Shown piece by piece: positions 1,064 to 21,857 of a stretch of DNA of 46,410 nt. This stretch comes from a virus (lineage: Duplodnaviria; Heunggongvirae; Uroviricota; Caudoviricetes). The position numbers and the translations under genes are program-made. The notes beneath the pieces are model-generated. The model was not told the DNA's origin, did no database searches, and saw only the letters and a list, made by a program, of their open reading frames with translations. The stretch covers positions 1 through 46,410 of IMG/VR virus record IMGVR_UViG_2721755497_000002; one strand, given 5' to 3'. Numbering within the stretch: position 1 is the first letter of the stretch; every line of letters begins with the position of its first letter.

Positions 1064-2059
1064 AGGTAACGGGACATCAAGTGTTGGTGAAACTTTAACC
1101 TTCCTGTCATAGATTAGCACTTGCCCTTCGGTTTTGTGACCAGAGAAAAGTTGCTTATCCCGGCTGCTTCCTTCATAGTCTGAAATTCCTTTCGCCTTCA
1201 GATCATGAAAGGTGAAGTCGGATAAAATACCTGAAATTTTTCCAGCACGATTTCTTGCTTCTACCCACATTTCGTTAAAGCCTTTGTACATATATCGGTT
1301 GCCGTATTGATTGCTGATCACATAGGCAGATTTTGGTAACTGTTTTGCTTTTTCGATCGCTGCCTGTAATCGTGGACTCCATGCTTTTATCTGTTTTTTT
1401 CCGGTTTTCCCTTGCTGGATGAATATCCCGTCGTTTCCAATCTGTTCCCATTTCAGCGATAACACATCGGAAACCCTCGCTGCACACAGATAGGCAATTT
1501 CCATTGCGATAAAAACAGGAAGAGGTGCAACGCTTAATACTGCCTGGTATTCTTTGTCGGTTACATATCGTTCGCGGTTTTTGGCCTTGAATTTACTTAC
1601 ACCTGCACATGGGTTAGCCTTGACGTACCCTCGCTCATACCCCCAACTGTAAACACGGGACATACTGCTTTTTTCATGGTTGGCTTGCGTTTTACTCTGC
1701 TCCCCTCTTTTGTCCATGTATCGACGGATGTGTTCTGGTTTTATGGAATCCGCTGGTACCTTACCGAATACGGCAAGCAACTTTTTTTGATGTTGCAGAT
1801 AATCTTTTTGTGTTCTTGGACTAAGGTCACTGTAATAGGCGCTGGCGAGGAATTTTTCCCACAAGCGACCGAATGTCATTGCACGATCGCGATTATTTAC
1901 AGTTTCCTCATACTTTTTCCATAAAGCAGCTAAACCATCCTTGATGGCGGTTAGTGTGACAGATTCTCTGGATGTTGGTTTCCATACATAACTATATTTA
2001 TTTGGGTATACATTTGGAGGTAATTTTTCGTGTTCAGGATTTTTCCTTCGTCTTCCCAT
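1034..2059 (-). CDS. int: Tyrosine integrase, lambda Int family
   Basis: 341-aa ORF; N-terminus MGRRRK...LPPN resembles lambda Int; directly adjacent to the tRNA integration site. Confidence 0.9.
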   Translation of the reverse strand: MGRRRKNPEHEKLPPNVYPNKYSYVWKPTSRESVTLTAIKDGLAALWKKYEETVNNRDRAMTFGRLWEKFLASAYYSDLSPRTQKDYLQHQKKLLAVFGKVPADSIKPEHIRRYMDKRGEQSKTQANHEKSSMSRVYSWGYERGYVKANPCAGVSKFKAKNRERYVTDKEYQAVLSVAPLPVFIAMEIAYLCAARVSDVLSLKWEQIGNDGIFIQQGKTGKKQIKAWSPRLQAAIEKAKQLPKSAYVISNQYGNRYMYKGFNEMWVEARNRAGKISGILSDFTFHDLKAKGISDYEGSSRDKQLFSGHKTEGQVLIYDRKVKVSPTLDVPLPENIPRKYSK

Positions 2060-2262
2060 CAGATCGCACCAAAATTCGGCTCTACCTCGCGTGGTGGTAA
2101 AGTTTTATTGCAGGTAAATAGATCCCGGCTGACAATCGGTTTGCCACTACGATTGGTATAGAACGGAAGCCCGTTTTCCATTAACCATTTTCGCTGGTGG
2201 CTTGCATATTTGCAGCCCGTTAATATTAGCAATTCATCTTCGGTTAAAAATAAGCTGCTCAT
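2059..2262 (-). CDS. xis: Excisionase-like protein
   Basis: 67-aa ORF immediately upstream of int with overlapping stop/start; size and position typical of lambdoid Xis. Confidence 0.55.
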   Translation of the reverse strand: MSSLFLTEDELLILTGCKYASHQRKWLMENGLPFYTNRSGKPIVSRDLFTCNKTLPPREVEPNFGAI

Positions 2263-2320
2263 AGCTATATCTCATAACCGCCGCTAACTATATACGGTTA
2301 GCGGCAATTAGGGTTGAACA

Positions 2321-4762
2321 TTAAAAATCAGCCTGACTCGGGATCAGTTTTTGCCAGATAGCTGAAACGTATTTTGCCTGGTAACGAGCGTCATCAAGTG
2401 CATTATGGCGCTCACCTTCGAATGGGATAGCAGTTCTGGCATCGAAGTCTATGGCTTTCCCCAGCTCAACGATTGTGCGTACATCGCGATCGTTGCAGTA
2501 GCGCCATGGGCAGGGGATACCCTGTCGTTCGTATGAACGGCGTAAAATCACGTTGTCGAAGTTGGCCCCATTACCCCAGACCTGAACAAAAAATTCACCG
2601 GAGTTTTCGTCGATAAATTCCCGCAATTGCAGTAGTGCATCATCTAACGGGATTTCATCGGTCATAATGGCAGACTGCGCTTCACGTGATTGCTTCAGCC
2701 ACCATTTAATGACGTCACGATCAATGACTCCGCCAGCAGTATCCAGATCGATGGTCTTGCTAAATTCCGGTCCCATATCTCCGGTTTGTGGATCGAAAAA
2801 TATTGCGCCTATTGAGATAATCGGGGCATCGGGATTTATTCCCATGGTTTCAAGGTCGATCATCAGATGAATCCCCGCTCTGCTGGTGGATGTGAGATTA
2901 TGATGACCGTTCGCCTTAATTAAGGGATCTGACGCCTCGCCAGTTTCACTATCGCTGGCATGATGCTGATTGCCGCCAGTGTTCTCCTTGTGCTGATGCG
3001 CAGTGCCTTCCATTTCCTCCGGATCATTTTCCTGAACTTCAGGCTGATTCTCTCCATCGAATATTTCCTGGTATGTTGCGTCACCCATCACCGCACCACA
3101 ATCAGGGCAGTTGCCGCCACCGCTATGACCGCAGGCGGTGCAGATCTTTTCCGGTTCCTGTTGCACTACTGGTTCAGGTTGTTTCGTTTCTGGCTCGTTT
3201 TGTTGCGTATTTGGGCTGTTTTGTTCCGCTTTCTGGTCGTTCTGTTCCGTTTCTTGCTGGTTCTGGTTCACAGAATCGCGAGTCTGGATCCCCTTGACCC
3301 ATTTCGGATCATTAGGGTCGCTAATCCCCTCAACAAATTCACCACGCGATACAGCAAGTAACTTATCGGCGTCAGGCTGGCTGATATTGGCTGCCTGCAT
3401 AATTTTGTTTACTTCGTCAGCGGTGACTTTTACCTGGTTAGCGGAACTCACCTGCGACTGAGCATCCAGCGACTGCGCGTTCTGGCAATGTTCAGTTGTA
3501 TCCGGTTCCATTGTTTCAGTTGTTGCCTGTTCACCTGCCATTGCGTCAGATGGTTGTGGTTTTTCTTCCTCTGTTTCACGTTCAGTAACCACCTCGCGGT
3601 TAATTTCTTCCAGGATATCTTTTTCCGGCGTATGCCGGGCAGCTGTGAGAGTTTCCTTGCTGGGGTTCTCGTGATCAGTTTCCGTCAAATAGGCGTTGAT
3701 ATACCCCTGAAGGCGTCCCGGGTAGTGATAAAATTCAGGGTGTGCGCTTCGGATAAGTGCAAAAATAGCGGCGCGGGAATAGTCCAGAATACCCGGGGTT
3801 GCACGAAGTGCTGAGGACCATTCTTTGAACGGACTTTCTTTTTTCAGGACTACTTCTTTTGCGCGACGATAAACGCTGCCCGGAATTTCATAAATATTAA
3901 AATCCATCGGAAGTGTGGCTGCTGCAATCTCCACATCCAGTGTGTCGAGGGTGTGTACTAAATTCGGATTGCGATCGGTTTTGTTCCCACCGCCAGCATT
4001 AGCACCGGAAGCCGTGCGGGTGATGCGTGAAACACGATTTCCTTTCATCCACTCTTTTGTCAGCAGACCCCGATCAATGTAGTCAGCGTCCAGGTATGCT
4101 TCGAAAAAAGCAGTTATTAGTCCCAGGTCTGAATTACCAGGATTAGGGAAAACTTTGTCAGTGTCACGAACCAGTTTGTGGAGGTCGCGAATCTCCAGCG
4201 AGTCGAGCAGACTGGTTTTATGCGAAATAGCCAGGGCAGTAACAGCCGGTAGTTCTTCAGCCCGTGCAATGTGTAATGCCTGGAGTTCGTCGCGTGAAAC
4301 GTGCGTTACTGGTTTTTCGCTGCCGTGTTGAGCAAGCCAACGAATGGGCAGTTCCTGACCGGAGACAGGCAGAAGCATGCTCTCCTCAATCTCAGTCATG
4401 TCTTCGCCGTTGATGTTGGTATTGTCAGTGCTGGCTGGTTTGTCCTGAACAGAGGGGGAAGGGCCGATAAATGTCATTGTGATGCCATCTTTCCCGCCTT
4501 TTTCATAGCGGTTGCAGAATTCAGTATCAAACACGCCTTCTGGCGGAAGGTCGTCAACAACGGGCAAATTGACGCGGACGGGTTTTTTAAAGTCGTCTTC
4601 ATCATAATCGTTGTCATCCATTGCGGTAATGCAGCGGGAGATTGCAACAGATAATTTTTTTGCTGTAGTCCAGTAAAAACCACCTTTAATTCCCAGGCGT
4701 TTTCTTACTTTGTCATTTTTTGCTTCGCAATATAGTGCAAATTCTTCTTTATCAGTGCTCAT
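2321..4762 (-). CDS. Large phage exonuclease: long acidic N-terminal region with a C4 zinc ribbon and a C-terminal DnaQ-like (DEDDh) 3'-5' exonuclease domain; the type often annotated exodeoxyribonuclease VIII-like in lambdoid prophages
   Basis: 813-aa ORF; C-terminal motifs IDLETMG (Exo I), WGNGANFD (Exo II), HNALDDARY (Exo III); zinc ribbon CTACGHSGGGNCPDCG. Confidence 0.75.
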   Translation of the reverse strand: MSTDKEEFALYCEAKNDKVRKRLGIKGGFYWTTAKKLSVAISRCITAMDDNDYDEDDFKKPVRVNLPVVDDLPPEGVFDTEFCNRYEKGGKDGITMTFIGPSPSVQDKPASTDNTNINGEDMTEIEESMLLPVSGQELPIRWLAQHGSEKPVTHVSRDELQALHIARAEELPAVTALAISHKTSLLDSLEIRDLHKLVRDTDKVFPNPGNSDLGLITAFFEAYLDADYIDRGLLTKEWMKGNRVSRITRTASGANAGGGNKTDRNPNLVHTLDTLDVEIAAATLPMDFNIYEIPGSVYRRAKEVVLKKESPFKEWSSALRATPGILDYSRAAIFALIRSAHPEFYHYPGRLQGYINAYLTETDHENPSKETLTAARHTPEKDILEEINREVVTERETEEEKPQPSDAMAGEQATTETMEPDTTEHCQNAQSLDAQSQVSSANQVKVTADEVNKIMQAANISQPDADKLLAVSRGEFVEGISDPNDPKWVKGIQTRDSVNQNQQETEQNDQKAEQNSPNTQQNEPETKQPEPVVQQEPEKICTACGHSGGGNCPDCGAVMGDATYQEIFDGENQPEVQENDPEEMEGTAHQHKENTGGNQHHASDSETGEASDPLIKANGHHNLTSTSRAGIHLMIDLETMGINPDAPIISIGAIFFDPQTGDMGPEFSKTIDLDTAGGVIDRDVIKWWLKQSREAQSAIMTDEIPLDDALLQLREFIDENSGEFFVQVWGNGANFDNVILRRSYERQGIPCPWRYCNDRDVRTIVELGKAIDFDARTAIPFEGERHNALDDARYQAKYVSAIWQKLIPSQADF

Positions 4763-5459: not shown

Positions 5460-5799
5460 ATTGATAACAGAGGGCGTTGCAGCGGGGTTGTCACTTAAGC
5501 GTATGGTCAACCTGACAACCCGGTGTCCTCAACGGGGAAGGAATAACCCCGCCATACTTACCGCCGCGTCATTTCGCGGAGTGCCACAACCGGAAGCGCA
5601 CGGTCGACGAAAATTTAACGACAGGCTATCTATGAACCAGCTACCTCGCCGTGCGCTTTCGCGTTATGGTCTGACTTTTCATGGAAATATCCTTTCAGTA
5701 AACTGTCAGTGCCGGATGCTCACCCGTGTCCGGCGCACGCACTCCACCTCACCCGTGGAGAACTCCTTAATTACCAACCTTAGCTTCGTTGGTTAGCTA

Positions 5800-6018
5800 T
5801 TAACGCGGGTATGTAATCATTCTGGCAATGCTTAATGCCGCTGCTTTTTCCAGATTGGTGATATCCTGCTCCAGAGCGGACAGATTTTCAGCCTGCTTAG
5901 CCCTGGCTTCATTGGCCCATTTCAGATCCTGCGCTGCATTAATTTTCTGGCGCATCCACTCATAAAGTTCATCATCGGTATAGTCTGGCGCGATGATGAC
6001 GGGTTCTCGTTTCTGCAT
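5800..6018 (-). CDS. ydfC: YdfC-like protein of the dicB operon
   Basis: 72-aa ORF MQKREPVIIAPDYTDDELYEWMRQKINAAQ... in the expected operon position. Confidence 0.7.
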   Translation of the reverse strand: MQKREPVIIAPDYTDDELYEWMRQKINAAQDLKWANEARAKQAENLSALEQDITNLEKAAALSIARMITYPR

Positions 6019-6047
6019 ACTGATTCCTCGCGGTGCTGCTTCGCTTA

Positions 6048-6176
6048 TCAGCCATTAGATTTTGCCGAACTGGAAAGCGCCTGTTTAAACTCACTGAAGC
6101 TGAGAGCTTCTTCGCCTTCGGCAAGGCCTTCGAAGTATTCTTCGTAAGCCTTTTCCATGACTGTGTTGAAATCCAT
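6048..6176 (-). CDS. ydfB: YdfB-like small protein (42 aa)
   Basis: Not in ORF track (under 60 aa); minus strand reads MDFNTVMEKAYEEYFEGLAEGEEALSFSEFKQALSSSAKSNG; adjacent to ydfA stop. Confidence 0.65.
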   Translation of the reverse strand: MDFNTVMEKAYEEYFEGLAEGEEALSFSEFKQALSSSAKSNG

Positions 6177-6177
6177 A

Positions 6178-6333
6178 TCACTCACCTGGATTTCTTTCTA
6201 GCCAGCGACGCGCGCCAGATTCGGTTTTAAACGTTTTACTTTTGGTATACGTCATCGCGGTGAACGTGCCGTCCTGGTTGGGAAACACGCCGTACACCAG
6301 AGATTCGTTGTTGCCAAGATCGATAGTATCCAT
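6178..6333 (-). CDS. ydfA: YdfA-like small protein (51 aa)
   Basis: Internal Met of ORF 6178..6414 gives MDTIDLGNNESLVYGVFPNQDGTFTAMTYTKSKTFKTESGARRWLERNPGE. Confidence 0.7.
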   Translation of the reverse strand: MDTIDLGNNESLVYGVFPNQDGTFTAMTYTKSKTFKTESGARRWLERNPGE

Positions 6334-6622
6334 GCTGACCTCATTTCCCCTTAACGCCGGGGTAGCGGAACAAAAACCTGCTGCATAGTTATTAAAGTTG
6401 AACCCTGCCGTCATGTTCTTACGCCTCGGGCTGGCTACTTAACCCCTGACCACTGCCTGGTAACTCGAAGTATTGCCCGGCGTTCTGTGGGGCGGGGTGG
6501 GTTGGTAGATTCAGTTTAATAAACATTAAACTGAAGTCAAGTAAAAACTAAATCATGGGGCGTAACAAACACAACGCTTTTGATAAAGTCGTTGCGGTTG
6601 TTATTTCTATTGGTAGTGAAAG

Positions 6623-6901
6623 TTAGGGAAACTGGCGTCTTGCGTGGATCACGTTTACTACTTCAACGCTTGATGTTGTTACGCGGTATAGAATTATATA
6701 GTTAGGGTGGGCCACAATCTCACGCAAGCCAGGTACTCTGTCGCTTGGTGGGTATAAATACGGATGTTCGGATAATGGCAGCACACAACCCCTTAATCGC
6801 TGCCATAAGCGTTCAGCCGCATCTACGTCGAAACGAGCAATATAACTAGTTATATCATCTAGGTCGGTATCTGCGCTTTCAAGCCATAACACGGGTAACA
6901 T
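6623..6901 (-). CDS. ParE/RelE-family type II toxin (candidate)
   Basis: About 92 aa from internal Met (MLPVLWLESADTDLDDITSYIARF...IHARRQFP); size and composition typical of ParE/RelE toxins; start is 1 nt after the stop of the upstream small gene. Confidence 0.65.
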   Translation of the reverse strand: MLPVLWLESADTDLDDITSYIARFDVDAAERLWQRLRGCVLPLSEHPYLYPPSDRVPGLREIVAHPNYIILYRVTTSSVEVVNVIHARRQFP

Positions 6902-6902
6902 T

Positions 6903-7094
6903 TTACTGCTTGCTCCGTTCCTTCCGCATTTTAGCAAAGCGTTCTGCCATTCTGCGCTCAACTTCGTCATGGGGAATTGCTGGGCGCGGATCTGCAAGGC
7001 TTGTTGCTACTTTCGCACGCAGCCATTCGTTGTAACTGTTTTCTTGTTCAATGGTTTCAAATTCAGAAACCATTGGTGAAAGGGCTCTATTCAT
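6903..7094 (-). CDS. Cognate antitoxin candidate (small DNA-binding protein)
   Basis: 63 aa from internal Met (MNRALSPMVSEFETIEQENSYNEWLRAK...); GGAGG Shine-Dalgarno 4 nt upstream; immediately upstream of and coupled to the toxin gene. Confidence 0.55.
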   Translation of the reverse strand: MNRALSPMVSEFETIEQENSYNEWLRAKVATSLADPRPAIPHDEVERRMAERFAKMRKERSKQ

Positions 7095-7114
7095 GTTTCC
7101 TCCGGTTTTATAAC

Positions 7115-7486
7115 TCAGGCGCGGCGGCATTTTTGCGCCGCAATCCATCTCGCTATGAGATCTTCCATTGATTCTTTTTTCTGCTTTAACTCGCTGATTA
7201 TCTGGCGTTGCTCATCCTCAGGGAAGGCTGAAAAAATCTGCAATAATTCCAGTTGATTAGACGTTAACCCTGCATGTGGTGGAGAAACCTCAGGTTGTTC
7301 TGCGTATTCCACATCTAGATACCCATCCGGCATCCCGTATGTTTGCTCTATTCTTCTGGCAGCCTTTTCTCCAAACGAGGCTCTCCCACTCATTAGTTGA
7401 GATAGGTAGCTCTTCTCTTTGGGTGGCAGAGTTTTATCTTTAAACCACTCCTTGAGACGTAAACGGCGAATTTCTTTTTTTTGCAT
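7115..7486 (-). CDS. Phage repressor, cI/DicA-like (HTH XRE family)
   Basis: 123 aa from internal Met MQKKEIRRLRLKEWF...; HTH region SYLSQLMSGRASFGEKAARRIEQ; divergent from the cro-like gene across an operator-rich spacer. Confidence 0.8.
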   Translation of the reverse strand: MQKKEIRRLRLKEWFKDKTLPPKEKSYLSQLMSGRASFGEKAARRIEQTYGMPDGYLDVEYAEQPEVSPPHAGLTSNQLELLQIFSAFPEDEQRQIISELKQKKESMEDLIARWIAAQKCRRA

Positions 7487-15747: not shown

Positions 15748-16125
15748 ATGACTGAACGCATAGAATTTGTTTTGCCTTACCCGCCGACGGTGAATACCTA
15801 CTGGCGACGTCATGGCAATACGTATTTCATCTCGGAGGCCGGAAAGCGTTATCGCCGTGATGTGGCGCTAATTGTTCGCCAGCAGCGGCTGAAATTAAAC
15901 CTGTCCGGAAGGCTGGCAATAAAAATTACTGCAGAGCCGCCGGATAAGCGCCGTCGGGACCTGGACAATATCCTGAAAGCACCGCTGGATGCACTGACGC
16001 ATGCGGGGCTTCTCATAGACGACGAGCAGTTTGATGAAATCAATATTGTGCGCGGTCAGCTCGTTCCTGGTGGGCGACTGGGCGTGAAGATTTGCGAAAT
16101 CAGAGGTGATGGTAATGGGGCGTGA
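15748..16125 (+). CDS. rusA: RusA Holliday junction resolvase
   Basis: 125 aa; motifs PPTVNTYWR and RRRDLDN...LDAL...AG match the RusA family. Confidence 0.85.
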   Translation: MTERIEFVLPYPPTVNTYWRRHGNTYFISEAGKRYRRDVALIVRQQRLKLNLSGRLAIKITAEPPDKRRRDLDNILKAPLDALTHAGLLIDDEQFDEINIVRGQLVPGGRLGVKICEIRGDGNGA

Positions 16126-16465
16126 TATGTATGAGGTTTTAGATCGCTGGGGGGCATGGGCTGCAGCAGAAAATAGCGGTGTCGATTGGCAACCGATAGC
16201 AGCGGGCTTCAAGGGGCTTTTGCCACATGGCAAAAAGTCACGTCTCCAGTGTGATGATGATGAAGGCATCATGATAGACGGTTGTGTGGCTCGGTTGCGA
16301 AAGTATAAACCAGAGGAATATGAGCTGCTCATAGCTCACTTTGTTATTGGTGTTTCTCTACGCTCAATCGCGAAGAAACGCAGGTGCTCAGATGGAACTA
16401 TAAGAAAGGAGCTGCAAACTGCATTAGGCTTTATTGATGGATGTATATGCTTGATTCTATCATAA
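16115..16465 (+). CDS. Late antiterminator Q (QuuD / phage 82 Q family)
   Basis: ORF 16106..16465; LDRWGAWAA...IAAGFKGL...RLQCDDDEG...DGCVARL resembles QuuD; likely start ATG 16115 after GAGGTGA. Confidence 0.75.
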   Translation: MGRDMYEVLDRWGAWAAAENSGVDWQPIAAGFKGLLPHGKKSRLQCDDDEGIMIDGCVARLRKYKPEEYELLIAHFVIGVSLRSIAKKRRCSDGTIRKELQTALGFIDGCICLILS

Positions 16466-16478
16466 GTTATGACTGTTA

Positions 16479-16865
16479 CTACTCGTTTGCTTGAGCTTTC
16501 GATTCGGCGTCAGATAAAGCATCAATACGAATATTTATGTTTTTTAATAGCTTATTGTCTAGATCGATAAGACATTGGTTGTAGTGCGCAATTTGGTCTG
16601 GTGTTAGGTTAGGGTTGGCCAGGCAGTTCGTGATGAATTTTCTGGCCGTTTTTATTTCCCTTTTCATTCTTACATCATTAAGCGTAGGCAAACCTATGTA
16701 AGCGATAAGAAGAATTACCACATGAGATAAGCCGACAGCAGCTCCAGGCGCCAATGATTTGAAGAAGGCTAATTGAGGAAGCCAGTCAAAAAGGAAATTC
16801 AATCCCGCAGTGATAAGGGTGGTAAACCATGCCTGCATTGCCAGGTAGGATTTAGTGTTCGCCAT
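16479..16865 (-). CDS. Uncharacterised membrane protein (cargo gene 3 of 3), two predicted TM helices plus helical C-terminus
   Basis: 128-aa ORF; hydrophobic segments WFTTLITAGLNFLF and VGLSHVVILLIAYIGL; start abuts stop of upstream gene; convergent with Q, 13-bp gap. Confidence 0.6.
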   Translation of the reverse strand: MANTKSYLAMQAWFTTLITAGLNFLFDWLPQLAFFKSLAPGAAVGLSHVVILLIAYIGLPTLNDVRMKREIKTARKFITNCLANPNLTPDQIAHYNQCLIDLDNKLLKNINIRIDALSDAESKAQANE

Positions 16866-17111
16866 TCACCTTCCTGCACTTGCTTCGTTGCGAGTTTTGA
16901 GTTCGCGTAGCAGTAGCGCCAACTCTTCTGCGTCATTTTCGTTTCTAACGCTGACTTTCCTTTTAGCGGTTCTGCCTTCAGGATCGGTGTAGGTTAGTTC
17001 AATATACGCATTCGGCTTTACCCAAACCAAGAACCTAAGCACAGCATATCTGACCGTCGCTGCGACAGCCATGAATACAGTGATGTAAAGCATAATGCTT
17101 AGGATTGACAT
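16866..17111 (-). CDS. Uncharacterised small membrane protein (cargo gene 2 of 3), one N-terminal TM helix
   Basis: 81-aa ORF; ILSIMLYITVFMAVAATV hydrophobic segment; translationally coupled to neighbours. Confidence 0.6.
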   Translation of the reverse strand: MSILSIMLYITVFMAVAATVRYAVLRFLVWVKPNAYIELTYTDPEGRTAKRKVSVRNENDAEELALLLRELKTRNEASAGR

Positions 17112-17114
17112 GAT

Positions 17115-18026
17115 TTAAAGTAGTTTCCTATCTGCCGCCGCTCTGTGGCGTATAACCTTAGTAATACTATAGCGTGGTTTAGACAGCGCGCCATTTGTTT
17201 CTTTTGTTGTTTCTGTCAGTTCTACAACAAAAAGATCACCCTTACAGAATGCTGCTTGGTTGTGTTCAACCCGTTCAAGAAAAGCCTCATCTTTCATAGA
17301 TGCGCTAACTTCTTCGCCATTTGGCAGGATGATATCCCAGCTTTTGCCTTGCTTGAATCGAACATTAGCAAAATGTACATTAGCTTGGCGTGTCGTTACG
17401 TGCGTTTTCTCGACAAAGGTGGATTTTGCAGTTTTAAAACTTACTGCTTCAGCTTGCGTCACCCTGACTACCTTATGCTTCTGCTGTGAAACTGAGAACG
17501 TGGATGGTTTTTCAGTCTGCAGGGGTTTATAGATTAATTTATCCAGTTCTTTTCGGATGATTGGACTGGTTATTAATTTTTGAATGTCGTTACTGCATTT
17601 AACCTTCTCACCATCCACTTCGATTTCTGCTGTATCTTTTTGTTCATCGACGACAATGGAGCTGATTTTACGCCCTTTGAGCCATTCGATTATCCCGAGT
17701 ACGCCACCTGCGGCAACTCCACCACCTGCAACGAGGCCAAGGGCGTTAATAGTTTTTATGCTCCCCATCACAGCAACAAGCAAAGTAAATGAACCTTCTT
17801 TTGTTGCCTTGATGTTGACTTTCGGCTCTGCTGTTTCGCCATTAATTATTTTTTCGGCGTGTTCAATCAGGGCACTAAGAGAGGTTAAGGCTTCGCCTAA
17901 TGTTTTCGCGTCGATCTGATTATCTGCGTATGCCTCTCCACCGTAGGCAATTTCGATTTCTGTTATTGGCATGTTTTCGAGTTGCTGCGTCATCAAAAGC
18001 ATCCTTTGCGCAAGAGAAATAGCCAC
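17115..18026 (-). CDS. Uncharacterised protein (cargo gene 1 of 3) with central Gly/Ala-rich hydrophobic segment
   Basis: 303-aa ORF (track start is GTG; probable true start ATG at 17993 after AAGGA, giving 292 aa); hydrophobic LLVAVMGSIKTINALGLVAGGGVAAGGVLGII; no recognisable catalytic motif. Confidence 0.6.
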   Translation of the reverse strand: MAISLAQRMLLMTQQLENMPITEIEIAYGGEAYADNQIDAKTLGEALTSLSALIEHAEKIINGETAEPKVNIKATKEGSFTLLVAVMGSIKTINALGLVAGGGVAAGGVLGIIEWLKGRKISSIVVDEQKDTAEIEVDGEKVKCSNDIQKLITSPIIRKELDKLIYKPLQTEKPSTFSVSQQKHKVVRVTQAEAVSFKTAKSTFVEKTHVTTRQANVHFANVRFKQGKSWDIILPNGEEVSASMKDEAFLERVEHNQAAFCKGDLFVVELTETTKETNGALSKPRYSITKVIRHRAAADRKLL

Positions 18027-18115
18027 AGGATACAGATAATTATGAAAAAATCACTAACGCGTACGCAAAAACTATCTTAATCTGTTAAGAGTGGTCGCTT
18101 CGCCACACAACTTAA

Positions 18116-18140
18116 ACCCGCATCAAGCGGTTTTTTTTGT
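18116..18140 (+). terminator. Weak intrinsic terminator (CCGCatcaaGCGG + T8) upstream of the tRNA cluster; possible tR'
   Basis: Short GC stem followed by eight T residues on the plus strand. Confidence 0.35.
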
Positions 18141-18243
18141 GCCACTTATCTCGGATAGACATGGTGAATGCGCTGGTGGAGGAGATAAGGGTGATTTTTG
18201 AATGCTTGCAACATTGATTTCGTAACGTTATTATCCTGCGCCC

Positions 18244-18319
18244 GGCCCTTTAGCTCAGTGGTGAGAGCGAGCGACTCATAATCGCCAGGTCGCTGGTTCA
18301 AATCCAGCAAGGGCCACCA
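18244..18319 (+). tRNA. tRNA with CAU anticodon (Met or lysidine-dependent Ile2; ileZ-like phage tRNA)
   Basis: 76 nt GGCCCTTTAGCTCAGTGGTGAGAGC...ACTCATAATCG...GGTTCAAATCCAGCAAGGGCCACCA; canonical cloverleaf. Confidence 0.8.
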
Positions 18320-18416: not shown

Positions 18417-18490
18417 GCGGTCATCGTATAATGGCTATTGCATCAGCCTTCCTGGCTGATTATGCGGGGCAATTCCCGCTGACCGCTCCA
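18417..18490 (+). tRNA. tRNA-like element, argO-like but degenerate (non-canonical anticodon loop CTTCCTG and shortened T-loop GCAATT)
   Basis: Acceptor GCGGTCA/TGACCGC with CCA end; anticodon and T-loops deviate from consensus; may be a pseudo-tRNA. Confidence 0.4.
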
Positions 18491-18675: not shown

Positions 18676-19104
18676 ATGTATTGCCGTGGTTTGCCAGTTC
18701 TTGTTTTGATATTCGCCTGCCTGGCAGCAGGCTGCACAAAAGATGTATCAACAAATTATCATGATAGTGCGCCATATCACGCAGGTGAATTAACAAAGGT
18801 TAAGAATGTTAATCCATCTGAAAGTACTGCTGATGTTAGTGAAGACATTCGTCATTATGCCGGTCAAATCAAAAAAGCCATTGAAGAACAGTTCAGGGAA
18901 CCGGGTAAGTATTCCGGGAAAGTGTGTTCACTGAGAATGAATATGGCTCCGAATGGTCTTCTGTTGCAGGTTAAAAGAGAAGGTGGAGACCCCGATTTAT
19001 GTCGTGAAGCGATGAATGCGGTGAAGCATGCTGATATACCAGCACCGCCGTCTCCGGAAGTATATAAAGTATTTCACAATGGAGTGCTGGATTTTAAACC
19101 GTGA
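18676..19104 (+). CDS. Lipoprotein carrying a TolA C-terminal (domain III)-like domain
   Basis: 142 aa; signal peptide with lipobox LAAGC; C-terminal 85 aa (YAGQIKKAIEEQF...GKVCSLRMNMAPNGLLLQVKREGGDPDLC...IPAPPSPEVYKVFHNGVLDFKP) closely parallels E. coli TolA domain III as recalled. Confidence 0.7.
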   Translation: MYCRGLPVLVLIFACLAAGCTKDVSTNYHDSAPYHAGELTKVKNVNPSESTADVSEDIRHYAGQIKKAIEEQFREPGKYSGKVCSLRMNMAPNGLLLQVKREGGDPDLCREAMNAVKHADIPAPPSPEVYKVFHNGVLDFKP

Positions 19105-19304
19105 TTCTACATCTTTGCAGTAAACAATAATCATAATTGCATGTTTTTTCTGTGGTGGGGCATTTGGCTTCTGTTGCCTGCGATGTATTGTGGACCTGGT
19201 ATCAGCCTGCAGAAAATGCACACAGGTGTGAAGTGTTAAATTCCTCACAACTCAGAACGCAGAATGTTGTCCTGCTTGCGGGGAATTTGTTAAAAGAGTA
19301 CAGC

Positions 19305-19423
19305 ATGGTGAATCCCCCTGAGCGGAGGGGCATAATGACAGATGTTTGGTCGTGTTATCGTATAGGCAAGTTGCGGATTCTGTCTGGTCATTGCAGAATT
19401 CACCGGGAGGCACCCGGCACCAT
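19305..19423. repeat. Repeat unit copy 1 (about 119 bp): ATGGTGAATCCCCCTGAGCGGAGGGGC ... CACCGGGAGGCACCCGGCACCAT with two GC-rich hairpins
   Basis: Termini shared with copy 2 and mutually reverse-complementary (ATGGTG / CACCAT). Confidence 0.45.
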
Positions 19424-19558
19424 GTATTTTCAATATGTTATTGATCATTCTCTTTTTCGGAATACTCTGGTTATGTTTTCCTGTAACTGATAATTAAATC
19501 ACATTTTGTGTAACTGCATATTGTCTGAACGGGATAAGTTTCAGTATCTTCTGAATGT

Positions 19559-19913: not shown

Positions 19914-21857
19914 ATGACATTTAAATATTATGATGTGGTTTCGGCCAGAACAACTGATGAATTAAAGCGGAAACTGAACGAAAAAATCCGTGAAGGATGG
20001 CAGCCTTATGGAACAATATCTGTTTCATCTGTGAGTGGTACTGAAGACATATATCATCAGCCAGTTGCTGCTGAGGGGGAGGTGAGTACGCCGGTGATAC
20101 GTCCTGATGCCGGTGATGATTCATCTGTGGCCGTCTCCGGATCGCCTGATTATTACTACGTGGTGGTACTGGCGGGGCAGTCAAATGGCATGGCCTATGG
20201 TGAAGGGTTTCCGTTACCGGATTCATTTGACCGCCCGGACCCACGGATTAAGCAACTGGCACGCCGCAGCACGGTCACGCCAGGTGGTACGCCGTGTAAA
20301 TACAATGACATCATTCCGGCAGACCACTGCCTGCATGATGTGCAGGACATGAGCGGGATAAACCACCCAAAAGCTGACCTGAACAAGGGGCAGTATGGTT
20401 GTGTGAGTCAGGGGCTGCATATTGCCAAAAAACTGCTGCCTTATATCCCGCAGAATGCCGGGATACTTCTGGTGCCCTGTTGCCGTGGCGGGTCAGCATT
20501 CACCACCGGGCCGGACGGTTCATTCAGTGAGGCCAGCGGTGCTTCCGCTGATTCTTCACGCTGGGGAGTCGGTAAACCTCTGTATCAGGACCTGGTAAGC
20601 CGCACCAAAGTCGCGCTGGCGAAGAACCCGAAAAACAAACTTCTGGCTGTGGTCTGGATGCAGGGAGAGGCAGACCTTGCATCGGGAAGTCAGCAGCATA
20701 ATGGTTTATTCACTGCCATGGTTCAGCAGTTCAGAGCCGACCTGTCTCCGCTTGCTGCGCAGTGCGTGAGTGGAAATGCTGGCACGGTACCGTGGATTTG
20801 TGGTGATACCACGTATTACTGGAAAAACGCTGGCACCGATAAATATGAGGCGGTATACGGTGGCTACAAAGGCAAGGAAACTCAGAATATTTTCTTTGTA
20901 CCGTTCCTGACGGATGAGAATGGACAGAACACGCCAACGAATGCTCCGACGGAAGATCCGGATATTGTGGCTGTCGGGTATTACGGTGCGGCATCCCGTA
21001 CCCAGGGCAGTTTTGTCTCGACACAGCGTGACAGCCATTTCAGTTCATGGGCACGCAGGGGCATCATTTCTGACCGTCTGGCCTCCTCTATTCTGCTCCA
21101 TGCAGGGCGCACGGCTGAACTGCTGGGCGGGCAGGCCGTGACACCACCGGATGAGAAGCCATCACCTGACACTCCATCAACATCACCGGGTGAAACTACC
21201 GGGATGACAACACTGTTTGCATACAGGGCCAGCGATTCGGAAGGACAACTGACTCCACAGGGCTGGGGGGCTGGCGGAGGTAGTGCCGCTGTTGTGGATG
21301 ATGCCGGAGCCAGTGGAGGTAAGGCGATGAAGCTTACCAAAGCGACGGGAAAATCCTCCTGGTACCTGGAACATGATGCCGGTAATGGTGCCGACCTGCT
21401 GGGCAAAGGCGGCCTTGTCAGTTGTCGTTTTAAACTTGATGGCGCGCTTACGGCTAATCAGTACGCACTGGCGCTGTACTGGCCGGTTTCTGCCCTGCCA
21501 CAAGGGGTTACCCTGGAAGGTAATGCTGGTCATAACCTGCTGGCATCTTTTTACGTTCAGAGCGATGCGACAGACCTTAACGTGATGTACCACAAGGGCG
21601 ATACGGCGCAAAACATGAAACTGGGGTCATTCGGTGCATTTGACAACGAGTGGCATACGTTGGGCTTCCGTTTCGCCGGTAACAACAGTATTGAGGTGAC
21701 GCCGGTCATTGATGGTCAGGACGGGACGCCGTTCATGCTGTCGCAGTTACCTGTCGGTTCTTTTGCGGCAGACAAGTTGCGCGTGACCGATATTACCAGT
21801 GCAGCAACGTATCCGGTGCTGATTGACAGCATAGTGGTGGAAGTGAATAACGCGTAA
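19914..21857 (+). CDS. nanS: NanS-p-type sialate O-acetylesterase (DUF1737 N-domain + SGNH/SASA esterase domain)
   Basis: 647 aa; N-terminus MTFKYYDVVSARTTDELKRKLNEKIREGWQPYGTISVSS (DUF1737-like); GQSN motif (VLAGQSNGMAYGEG); position between tRNAs and lysis genes as in EHEC prophages. Confidence 0.8.
   Translation: MTFKYYDVVSARTTDELKRKLNEKIREGWQPYGTISVSSVSGTEDIYHQPVAAEGEVSTPVIRPDAGDDSSVAVSGSPDYYYVVVLAGQSNGMAYGEGFPLPDSFDRPDPRIKQLARRSTVTPGGTPCKYNDIIPADHCLHDVQDMSGINHPKADLNKGQYGCVSQGLHIAKKLLPYIPQNAGILLVPCCRGGSAFTTGPDGSFSEASGASADSSRWGVGKPLYQDLVSRTKVALAKNPKNKLLAVVWMQGEADLASGSQQHNGLFTAMVQQFRADLSPLAAQCVSGNAGTVPWICGDTTYYWKNAGTDKYEAVYGGYKGKETQNIFFVPFLTDENGQNTPTNAPTEDPDIVAVGYYGAASRTQGSFVSTQRDSHFSSWARRGIISDRLASSILLHAGRTAELLGGQAVTPPDEKPSPDTPSTSPGETTGMTTLFAYRASDSEGQLTPQGWGAGGGSAAVVDDAGASGGKAMKLTKATGKSSWYLEHDAGNGADLLGKGGLVSCRFKLDGALTANQYALALYWPVSALPQGVTLEGNAGHNLLASFYVQSDATDLNVMYHKGDTAQNMKLGSFGAFDNEWHTLGFRFAGNNSIEVTPVIDGQDGTPFMLSQLPVGSFAADKLRVTDITSAATYPVLIDSIVVEVNNA

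Follow-up and report, generated by a model that had tools for sequence, protein, structure and literature searches.

The window analysed here is a stretch of 46,410 nucleotides (nt) from the viral record IMGVR_UViG_2721755497_000002, and it comprises a lambdoid prophage that is 100% identical in Escherichia coli strains M1 and M3. Between the gene of a small antiterminator, Q, and a cluster of tRNA genes, the open reading frame (ORF) map of the window contains three coupled minus-strand ORFs, which are designated genes A, B and C and form the cassette considered in this study. Gene A (17115..17993, minus strand) encodes a protein of 292 amino acids (aa) when read from the ATG at 17993, and its ORF stays open as far as a GTG at 18026 (303 aa). 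The ATG is the likelier start, because the Shine-Dalgarno sequence AAGGA (18006-18002, minus strand) lies 8 nt upstream of it, the NCBI Prokaryotic Genome Annotation Pipeline (PGAP) uses it and the homologues begin there. Gene B (16866..17111, minus strand) encodes 81 aa and belongs to phrog_27630, a family of unknown function, and gene C (16479..16865, minus strand) is a conserved partner gene of 128 aa. The stop codon of A is separated from the start of B by 3 nt, and the stop of B abuts the start of C. At the 3' end of the cassette, 13 bp lie between the stop codon of C and that of the convergent Q gene (16106..16465, plus strand), which is of the Phage_antitermQ type according to its ORF and PGAP. 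The 5' end of A points toward the tRNA genes, the first of which starts at 18244. In an initial annotation, the three genes had been described as tightly coupled, opposite to their flanking genes, ending 13 bp from the stop of Q and facing the tRNAs, and this description was confirmed by the ORF map, the spacing and the coordinates.

Gene B is missing from the PGAP annotation. The ratio of nonsynonymous to synonymous substitution rates (dN/dS), taken only from comparisons with unsaturated synonymous sites, ranges from 0.03 to 0.10 over the three genes (0.06-0.10 for B and 0.04-0.10 for C), indicating at the sequence level that all three are under strong purifying selection. In addition, A, B and C are kept together in 28 of 28 assessable proteobacterial loci. 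These low ratios and the retained gene order argue that all three are real genes, and they form a coupled unit that is conserved as such.

The cassette has a G+C content of 43.4%; the whole window reaches 51.6%, and the 5-kb stretches on either side of the cassette reach 49-50%. The low value places the cassette within the lowest 3.2% of windows of the same size. The cassette is thus AT-rich as had been pointed out, with the reservation that it deviates from the mean by only about 1.8 standard deviations.

Membrane segments had been predicted for all three products, which is clearly the case for B, partly for C and marginally for A. Protein B has one N-terminal membrane helix (-0.6 kcal/mol), followed by some 45 aa in which a P..I..T..D..G motif is conserved. 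Protein C has two hydrophobic helices, the second being the stronger, and a tail of about 65 aa that opens with a stretch rich in Lys and Arg; on a simplified Hessa-scale sum one of its helices is marginal (about +1.2 kcal/mol) and the other weaker. Six Lys or Arg residues follow the second helix of C, and stretches rich in these residues also follow the helix of B. Because of this distribution of charge round the hydrophobic helices, the soluble parts of both proteins are predicted to face the cytoplasm. Scans of B, C and their distant relatives against Pfam, PHROGs, NCBIfam and PADLOC returned only PHROGs of unknown function; neither protein is represented in PADLOC, and neither C nor any of its distant relatives matches a holin family of Pfam or PHROGs.

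Protein A and its homology to MichelleMyBell gp29

Protein A belongs to a large family that has already been catalogued under several names. Residues 22-299 of the 303-aa form match positions 4-294 of the 302-position PADLOC profile PDC-S42 (model PDLC05015) with an E-value of 3.3e-53, and the NCBIfam model NF053583 is matched with 225.3 bits, against a cutoff of 60. This model is named 'LAPAL motif-containing putative phage structural protein', a name which RefSeq also gives to a protein identical to A. A further match is phrog_3243, function unknown. An exhaustive profile search with A, carried out on clusters at 50% identity, retrieved 2937 cluster representatives at E<=0.001 and 1497 at E<=1e-10, and among the best 150 of the 2937 matches most proteins measure 280-320 aa. 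A wider profile search of a word-indexed database with an alignment of 142 sequences of the family brought little more. In a literature search, nothing was found on PDC-S42, the 'LAPAL motif', DUF7946 (see below) or two RefSeq protein accessions. Hence two earlier statements have to be withdrawn as far as A is concerned, namely that the system was undescribed, since A is already present in PADLOC and NCBIfam, and that none of the products resembled a nameable protein, given the PDC-S42 and NF053583 matches and the homology to gp29 set out next.

The relationship to a mycobacteriophage defence protein was revealed by several comparisons. A Foldseek search of viral models with A matched a protein of mycobacteriophage Pipsqueaks, which is 99.5% identical to part of gp29 of mycobacteriophage MichelleMyBell. 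The 142-sequence profile of A aligns with gp29 in hhalign at 98.9% probability (E 2.4e-17, 269 columns), BLASTP of the A of the window against gp29 gives an E-value of 5e-7 with 22% identity over 274 residues, and gp29 itself matches the PDC-S42 model at 1.6e-16. The depositor of a Vibrio element had, moreover, labelled the A homologue there 'MMB_gp29_gp30__gp29'. These alignments show A to be a full-length homologue of gp29. The two proteins are alike in size (292 versus 310 aa, the latter in RefSeq) but share just 22% identity, and each is directly followed by a gene for a small membrane protein whose start overlaps or abuts the end of the preceding gene. In MichelleMyBell this is gp30, a single 67-aa protein that has two hydrophobic helices and whose reading frame starts before that of gp29 has ended, whereas in the window two partners are found, B with one helix and a cytoplasmic part and C with two helices and a tail. 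When the alignments of B and C were compared with gp30 in hhalign, the probabilities stayed below 1%; small membrane-protein genes thus occupy the corresponding place without detectable homology to gp30. Both A-B-C and gp29/gp30 represent cargo of temperate phages outside the core modules. As for Pipsqueaks, its gp29 homologue (6395-7304) is annotated with 184 aa, the N-terminal part seemingly lying in another frame (ORF 6395-6886), and, compared with the 310-aa gp29 of MichelleMyBell, a frameshift may be present in this copy.

The primary description of gp29/gp30 is reportedly that of Dedrick and colleagues from 2017. In a later paper, the pair is presented as a toxic protein and a putative membrane protein which defend against lytic phages by a mechanism that is unknown (PMC11856565). 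According to another paper, the system of MichelleMyBell is typical of abortive infection, as adsorption and DNA injection go ahead (PMC6426606). A preprint states that DefenseFinder finds the two-gene system MMB_gp29_gp30 only in Actinobacteria (bioRxiv 10.1101/2023.03.30.534874).

The AlphaFold2 model of A, based on the 142 diverse sequences, has a mean predicted local distance difference test score (pLDDT) of 92.9 and a predicted template-modelling score of 0.87. In this model the N-terminus consists of a strand and a long helix (the 'LAPAL' region, which reads TLGEAL in the protein of the window, where other members of NF053583 have LAPAL), followed by two strands. Residues 79-105 are predicted to form two short helices joined by a Gly-rich loop, after which comes a basic LKGRK motif. 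A mixed alpha/beta middle part and a C-terminal canonical OB-fold (about residues 195-284) complete the model. Near-invariant positions of the family are Y17, L32, G67, S68, G86, R147, P157, W219, D235, F238 and V280. In the 142-sequence alignment these compose no recognisable catalytic motif, in agreement with the initial annotation. With high confidence, A is modelled as a compact, non-enzymatic cytoplasmic protein ending in an OB-fold. Besides, for 56 of the 142 sequences of the family a weak match to Pfam DUF7946 (PF25678) was recorded, over about its first 37 positions, and the matching part corresponds to the N-terminal strand and LAPAL helix. The N-terminal domain of A may therefore be common to another uncharacterised family.

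A central Gly/Ala-rich hydrophobic hairpin had been proposed for A. The segment is real, with a Kyte-Doolittle value of 1.97 in a 19-residue window, but it is marginal and does not amount to a clear transmembrane hairpin. The median of the family is 1.61, with about half of the members above 1.6, and the simplified Hessa-scale sum of the segment is +1.8 kcal/mol. The segment is more hydrophobic in A than in gp29, where its equivalent reaches +5.3 kcal/mol and is not hydrophobic. AlphaFold2 packs the Gly/Ala-rich segment into the globular body, with pLDDT values of 81-94 for the blocks covering residues 61-90 and 73 for the block 91-100. As the segment is marginal, non-hydrophobic in gp29 and buried in the model, it is more likely that A is a soluble or peripheral protein than an integral membrane protein.

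Insertion site and genomic contexts

Beyond the 5' end of the cassette, on the plus strand, lies a late regulatory region (18045..18138). It contains a palindrome, GCGTACGC, at 18059-18066 and, at 18114-18138, a hairpin with eight T residues behind it, the probable tR'. The promoter elements (-35 and -10) of pR' could not be placed by eye in this region. A block homologous to positions 18045-18113 of the window is present in 1159 of 5426 complete E. coli genomes. In E. coli 2012C-4431, for instance, it starts right at the stop codon of a small, related Q gene, and a strong hairpin with a T-run forms its end. By this arrangement, the block can be read as the late region (pR'/qut/tR') that serves Q genes of this type. 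Between Q and the block, the window has about 1.57 kb. Comparison of sequences thus shows the cassette to be an insertion between the stop codon of Q and the late regulatory region. Its junctions were read from the sequence and compared with the empty site of 2012C-4431. The left one (16462..16472, plus strand) reads ATAAGTTATGA, and the right one (18036-18045) reads ATAATTATGA, an imperfect direct repeat of the former; this repeat may be a trace of the recombination that inserted the cassette.

The late regulatory region is divergent from the candidate promoter of A-B-C and overlaps it. Among the copies of the window, Citrobacter, Salmonella and metagenomes, the roughly 110 bp that precede A hardly vary, whereas the coding regions of the same copies are only 75-92% identical in protein. 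This block carries the palindrome GCGTACGC and a candidate sigma-70 promoter, and on its other strand the tR'-like hairpin. Read by eye against the consensus, the 5' untranslated region and putative promoter extend over 17994..18068 (minus strand), with a candidate -35 element TTGCGT (18068-18063, minus strand) that agrees with the consensus at three of six positions, an 18-nt spacer and a candidate -10 element CATAAT (18044-18039, minus strand) that reads TATAAT in the Salmonella copy. The earlier proposal that the operon has its own promoter accordingly finds support in a conserved upstream region with a plausible candidate.

Prophages of Citrobacter and Salmonella whose replication modules are unrelated also carry the unit of Q and A-B-C, with its 13-nt gap unchanged. 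The Q allele is present at at least 99% identity in 38 E. coli genomes, and the cassette is present in 37. Being placed between Q and its presumed cognate site, the cassette is inherited together with this pair, and it moves with Q and the target promoter whenever lambdoid phages swap their late-control modules.

Several observations concern the surrounding DNA. The segment 18114-18250 of the window is a mosaic junction, with the small Phage_antitermQ-type Q upstream of it; the stretch from 18114 to the first tRNA is 95.7% identical to the DNA downstream of a 229-aa lambda-type Q in PPompW and Stx2a phages. PGAP calls a 36-aa 'antiterminator' coding sequence at 18091-18201 (plus strand), overlapping the tR'-like hairpin and intergenic DNA. 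In PPompW phages the matching DNA lies at least 65 bp downstream of the lambda-type Q gene, and the call is probably spurious rather than a remnant of Q. In E. coli SCU-387 (locus 1499-3324), a small Q that is 86% identical is followed by genes for a DNA cytosine methyltransferase and a HEPN-like nuclease, without the cassette. These two genes suggest that the position after such Q genes could be a hotspot of defence-like cargo.

Outside the Q-linked group, the cassette is found at very different places. Homologues of A at 45-62% identity are each followed by homologues of B and C at 23-39%, and the three-gene order also occurs in IMG/VR relatives (A at 29-34%) and in a Wohlfahrtiimonas relative (A at 24%). 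Carriers of the A family include lambdoid, P2-like, Mu-like and tectivirus-like prophages and one integrative island, and their hosts belong to the Proteobacteria, Firmicutes and Actinobacteria. After Q, and convergent with it, the cassette lies in E. coli (the window), Citrobacter and Salmonella; in E. coli it also occupies the nin region, on the same strand as its neighbours. In Plesiomonas it directly follows a cI-type repressor gene on the same strand, which is the rexAB position of lambda, and in a P2-like prophage of Wohlfahrtiimonas it comes a few genes after the repressor, again on the same strand. It stands upstream of holin and SLT genes in Mu-like prophages of Orbaceae and upstream of a GH108-type endolysin gene, as read from the sequence, in two viral contigs, and it adjoins tail or tail-fibre genes in Pantoea and Serratia. 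Some marine Mu-like phages have it among head genes. In Enterobacter hormaechei it marks one end of an integrative island that has a serine recombinase, and in a 14-kb tectivirus-like Vibrio element (non-tailed, Vinavirales) it adjoins the integrase. Relatives of A also lie between the lysin and integrase genes of Lactobacillus phage A2 and MichelleMyBell.

Such varied positions point to cargo behaviour and not to a core phage function. This accords with the suggestion in the initial annotation that the site downstream of Q is a cargo (moron) site, as the relatives also lie at cargo positions. What had been built on the reverse orientation is not supported: this orientation is specific to the Q-linked clade, and other relatives are oriented like their neighbours. 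In five related loci, no neighbour of the cassette convincingly matched a known defence family, so that there is no defence-island support beyond the cargo position itself. In the Enterobacter hormaechei island, a divergent gene for a 250-aa protein with a tRNA_anti-like OB-fold domain (5747-6499, minus strand) adjoins the cassette; this protein matches no PADLOC model.

The partners of A differ in Gram-positive bacteria. Two single-gene loci were seen, from Lactobacillus and Bifidobacterium phages: ORF19 of Lactobacillus phage A2 is an A homologue standing alone (PDC-S42, 6.6e-77), and in Bifidobacterium phage Bbif-1 the homologue is likewise a single gene. Actinobacterial homologues are paired with a small membrane protein unrelated to B and C. 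Since B and C are not detectably related to gp30 and the A2 and Bbif-1 members have no partner, A is the conserved core of the family, with membrane partners that differ by lineage.

According to the PGAP annotation of M3, the prophage of the window adjoins a tRNA-Ser gene and mtfA. Lysis is provided for by a class II holin, a lysozyme and Rz genes of its own, and the head and tail genes are complete, so that the prophage needs the cassette neither for lysis nor for virion building. The integrase gene (about 1009-2059) and one tail-fibre gene (44098-45505) are frameshifted in M3, for which reason the prophage is probably defective. Its other cargo includes relBE, dicB, hokD, a Hok/Gef gene, a TolA-like gene and a DUF6645 gene. 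In the tRNA cluster, the first tRNA (anticodon CAT) is assigned to Ile by PGAP and to Met by ARAGORN, and a third tRNA (18417-18487, plus strand), Gly according to PGAP, was found by Rfam and PGAP and missed by ARAGORN. A full-length match to the small RNA STnc100 (RF02076, 119 bits) was detected at 19274-19478 (plus strand), between the TolA-like gene (18676-19104) and the DUF6645 gene (19914-21857).

Possible function and alternative explanations

By analogy with MichelleMyBell, A-B-C is most likely an anti-phage defence of the gp29/gp30 type that acts by abortive infection and is carried as cargo by temperate phages; a probability of roughly 0.6 is assigned to this reading. Besides the homology, it draws on the positions of relatives behind repressor genes and at other cargo sites, on the purifying selection and constant order of A-B-C, on the cytoplasmic placement predicted for the soluble parts of B and C, on the conserved upstream DNA and on the fact that the prophage can do without these genes. 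Superinfection exclusion or abortive infection had been the leading hypothesis from the start, and the full-length likeness of A to gp29 now lends it support from homology. In a lysogen, the operon would be transcribed from its own promoter (about 18068-18039), while during lytic growth rightward transcription through Q would run antisense into A-B-C. Protein A would serve as both sensor and effector, and B and C would tether it, restrain it or execute its action, in analogy to the reportedly toxic gp29 and the membrane protein gp30. An incoming heterologous phage could trigger A, possibly through binding of phage nucleic acid or protein by the OB-fold. The outcome would be a membrane-directed toxicity that halts phage production after DNA entry, by way of the hydrophobic hairpin of A, the holin-like two-helix protein C, or both. 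This particular route from sensor to membrane, drawn by analogy, is tentative, and it is more probable that the details differ.

Several points weigh against defence by abortive infection. The proteobacterial members are putative defence genes, and PDC-S42 is a candidate system. The identity to gp29 is low and B and C have no detectable homology to gp30, so the logic of the partners may differ. In several phages the cassette is co-directional with lytic genes and stands beside lysis genes. The phenotype of gp29/gp30 is cited second-hand, from later papers. In addition, the cassette is rare, with the window form in 37 and the nin-region form in 4, or about 41, of 5426 complete E. coli genomes, and its promoter, which is weak in consensus, was not among the sites listed by a promoter scan, because the -35 element matches at just three of six positions.

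Alternatively, A, B and C might form a constitutive inner-membrane complex that blocks the entry of DNA, as do SieA of P22, Imm of T4 and gp32 of Charlie. Two of the three products are predicted to be small inner-membrane proteins and the cassette occupies prophage cargo sites, both of which suit exclusion, and Cluster N mycobacteriophages are described as also having an exclusion-type membrane protein (PMC9262239). Yet the core of the family is the cytoplasmic A, which Gram-positive phages encode without partners, a cytoplasmic location is predicted for the soluble parts of B and C, and the homologous MichelleMyBell system is said to let DNA injection proceed (PMC6426606). Exclusion is thus judged unlikely, and the predicted cytoplasmic location of the soluble parts, the single-gene Gram-positive members and the MichelleMyBell phenotype together favour abortive infection over exclusion at the surface. 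Another conceivable benefit to the lysogen is one unrelated to phages, such as envelope stress tolerance or colonisation. That a degraded prophage, its integrase and tail-fibre genes frameshifted, still contains this cargo suggests that the host retains it, and for the proteobacterial members a function is deduced from homology. The homology of A to a defence component speaks against such a benefit, and the spread of the family over very different hosts and envelopes argues for a target common to phage infection, which makes this explanation rather unlikely too.

An addiction or toxin-antitoxin-like module, in which A would be the toxin, B and C its neutralisers and phage defence secondary or absent, would fit the tight translational coupling of the genes and the company of relBE, hokD and Hok/Gef toxin modules in the same prophage, and gp29 is reported as toxic and paired with a small membrane protein (PMC11856565). 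Such a module is nevertheless improbable, as the Gram-positive members encode A without any neutralising partner and gp29/gp30 is described as defence in the same sources (PMC11856565, PMC6426606). It has also to be considered whether the cassette assists the lysis of its own phage, by timing the holin or controlling lysis inhibition. It lies directly upstream of endolysin or holin-SLT genes in several phages and directly after lysis genes in A2 and MichelleMyBell, and C resembles a holin in its layout of two helices and a charged tail. Positions beside lysis genes are, however, standard cargo sites as well, other copies follow repressor genes, adjoin integrases or reside in an island without lysis genes, and in the window the operon is antisense to the late operon of a prophage which owns a complete lysis cassette. 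Family scans matched no holin, spanin or endolysin family to A, B or C, and a role in lysis is considered quite improbable. As to C being the holin of the phage itself, this was rejected, given the lack of a holin family match and the class II holin of the prophage. Finally, the product name of NF053583 and the cassettes among head genes of some marine Mu-like phages would suggest that A is a structural protein of the virion. This is very improbable: the operon of the window is opposite to the late genes, and copies are known from lysogeny modules, from a non-tailed Vinavirales element and from an island that lacks structural genes; moreover, the partners of A are membrane proteins and its homologue gp29 is a defence component.

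Comparison with known systems and significance

Through A, the cassette belongs to the gp29/PDC-S42 superfamily, with neither a detectable gp30 homologue nor the single-gene organisation. PDC-S42 is catalogued as an unvalidated candidate of a single gene, whereas the proteobacterial form is a conserved operon of three genes; in PADLOC, A is accordingly recognised as this candidate and B and C match no model. A certain likeness exists to RexA/RexB, which also comprise a cytoplasmic protein of about 280-290 aa and a small polytopic membrane protein and follow a membrane-directed abortive logic of the sort proposed for A-B-C. Relatives of the cassette are found in the rex position, directly in Plesiomonas and several genes further on in Wohlfahrtiimonas, while the copy of the window lies beside Q and not cI. 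Membership in RexAB was rejected, with hhalign probabilities of 0.2% for A against RexA and 0.6% for C against RexB. GiPD474, a Gifsy prophage defence, was also rejected, being an ATPase unrelated to the cassette.

A weak alignment links residues 81-140 of A, a Gly-rich hydrophobic helix followed by a basic motif and beta strands, with the C-terminal, toxic portion of the EACC1 profile (PF19953). EACC1 is a protease-activated pore former; one of its helices bears a patch of small residues at its centre, and pores arise when an inhibitory part is taken away. A is three times larger than EACC1. The match, 15.6 bits against a Pfam threshold of 23.6, was weak and seen in only 4 of the 142 family members, and membership was rejected. 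No caspase-like protease gene is annotated in the prophage or in the related cassette loci. More speculatively, and with low probability, the gp29/PDC-S42 family might be a widespread, unrecognised class of sensor-effectors, in which the OB-fold senses an infection cue such as single-stranded DNA or a DNA-protein intermediate and thereby frees a buried glycine-zipper hairpin that permeabilises the inner membrane directly or by gating C. Such a release of the hairpin would parallel activation of the EACC1 or gasdermin type, but without proteolysis.

Judged from sequence homology, the cassette is most likely the proteobacterial three-gene form of a validated, mechanistically unsolved prophage defence. 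MichelleMyBell gp29/gp30, PDC-S42, the 'LAPAL structural protein' of NCBI and about 2,900 protein clusters are now joined, and the two membrane partners of the proteobacterial operon are in no catalogue. Should the E. coli cassette turn out to defend against coliphages, the NCBI product name would need correcting, tools for finding defence systems would need a three-gene model, the family would be open to E. coli genetics and standard phage collections, and the three-gene form would make a mechanism that has been unsolved since 2017 tractable in a model host.

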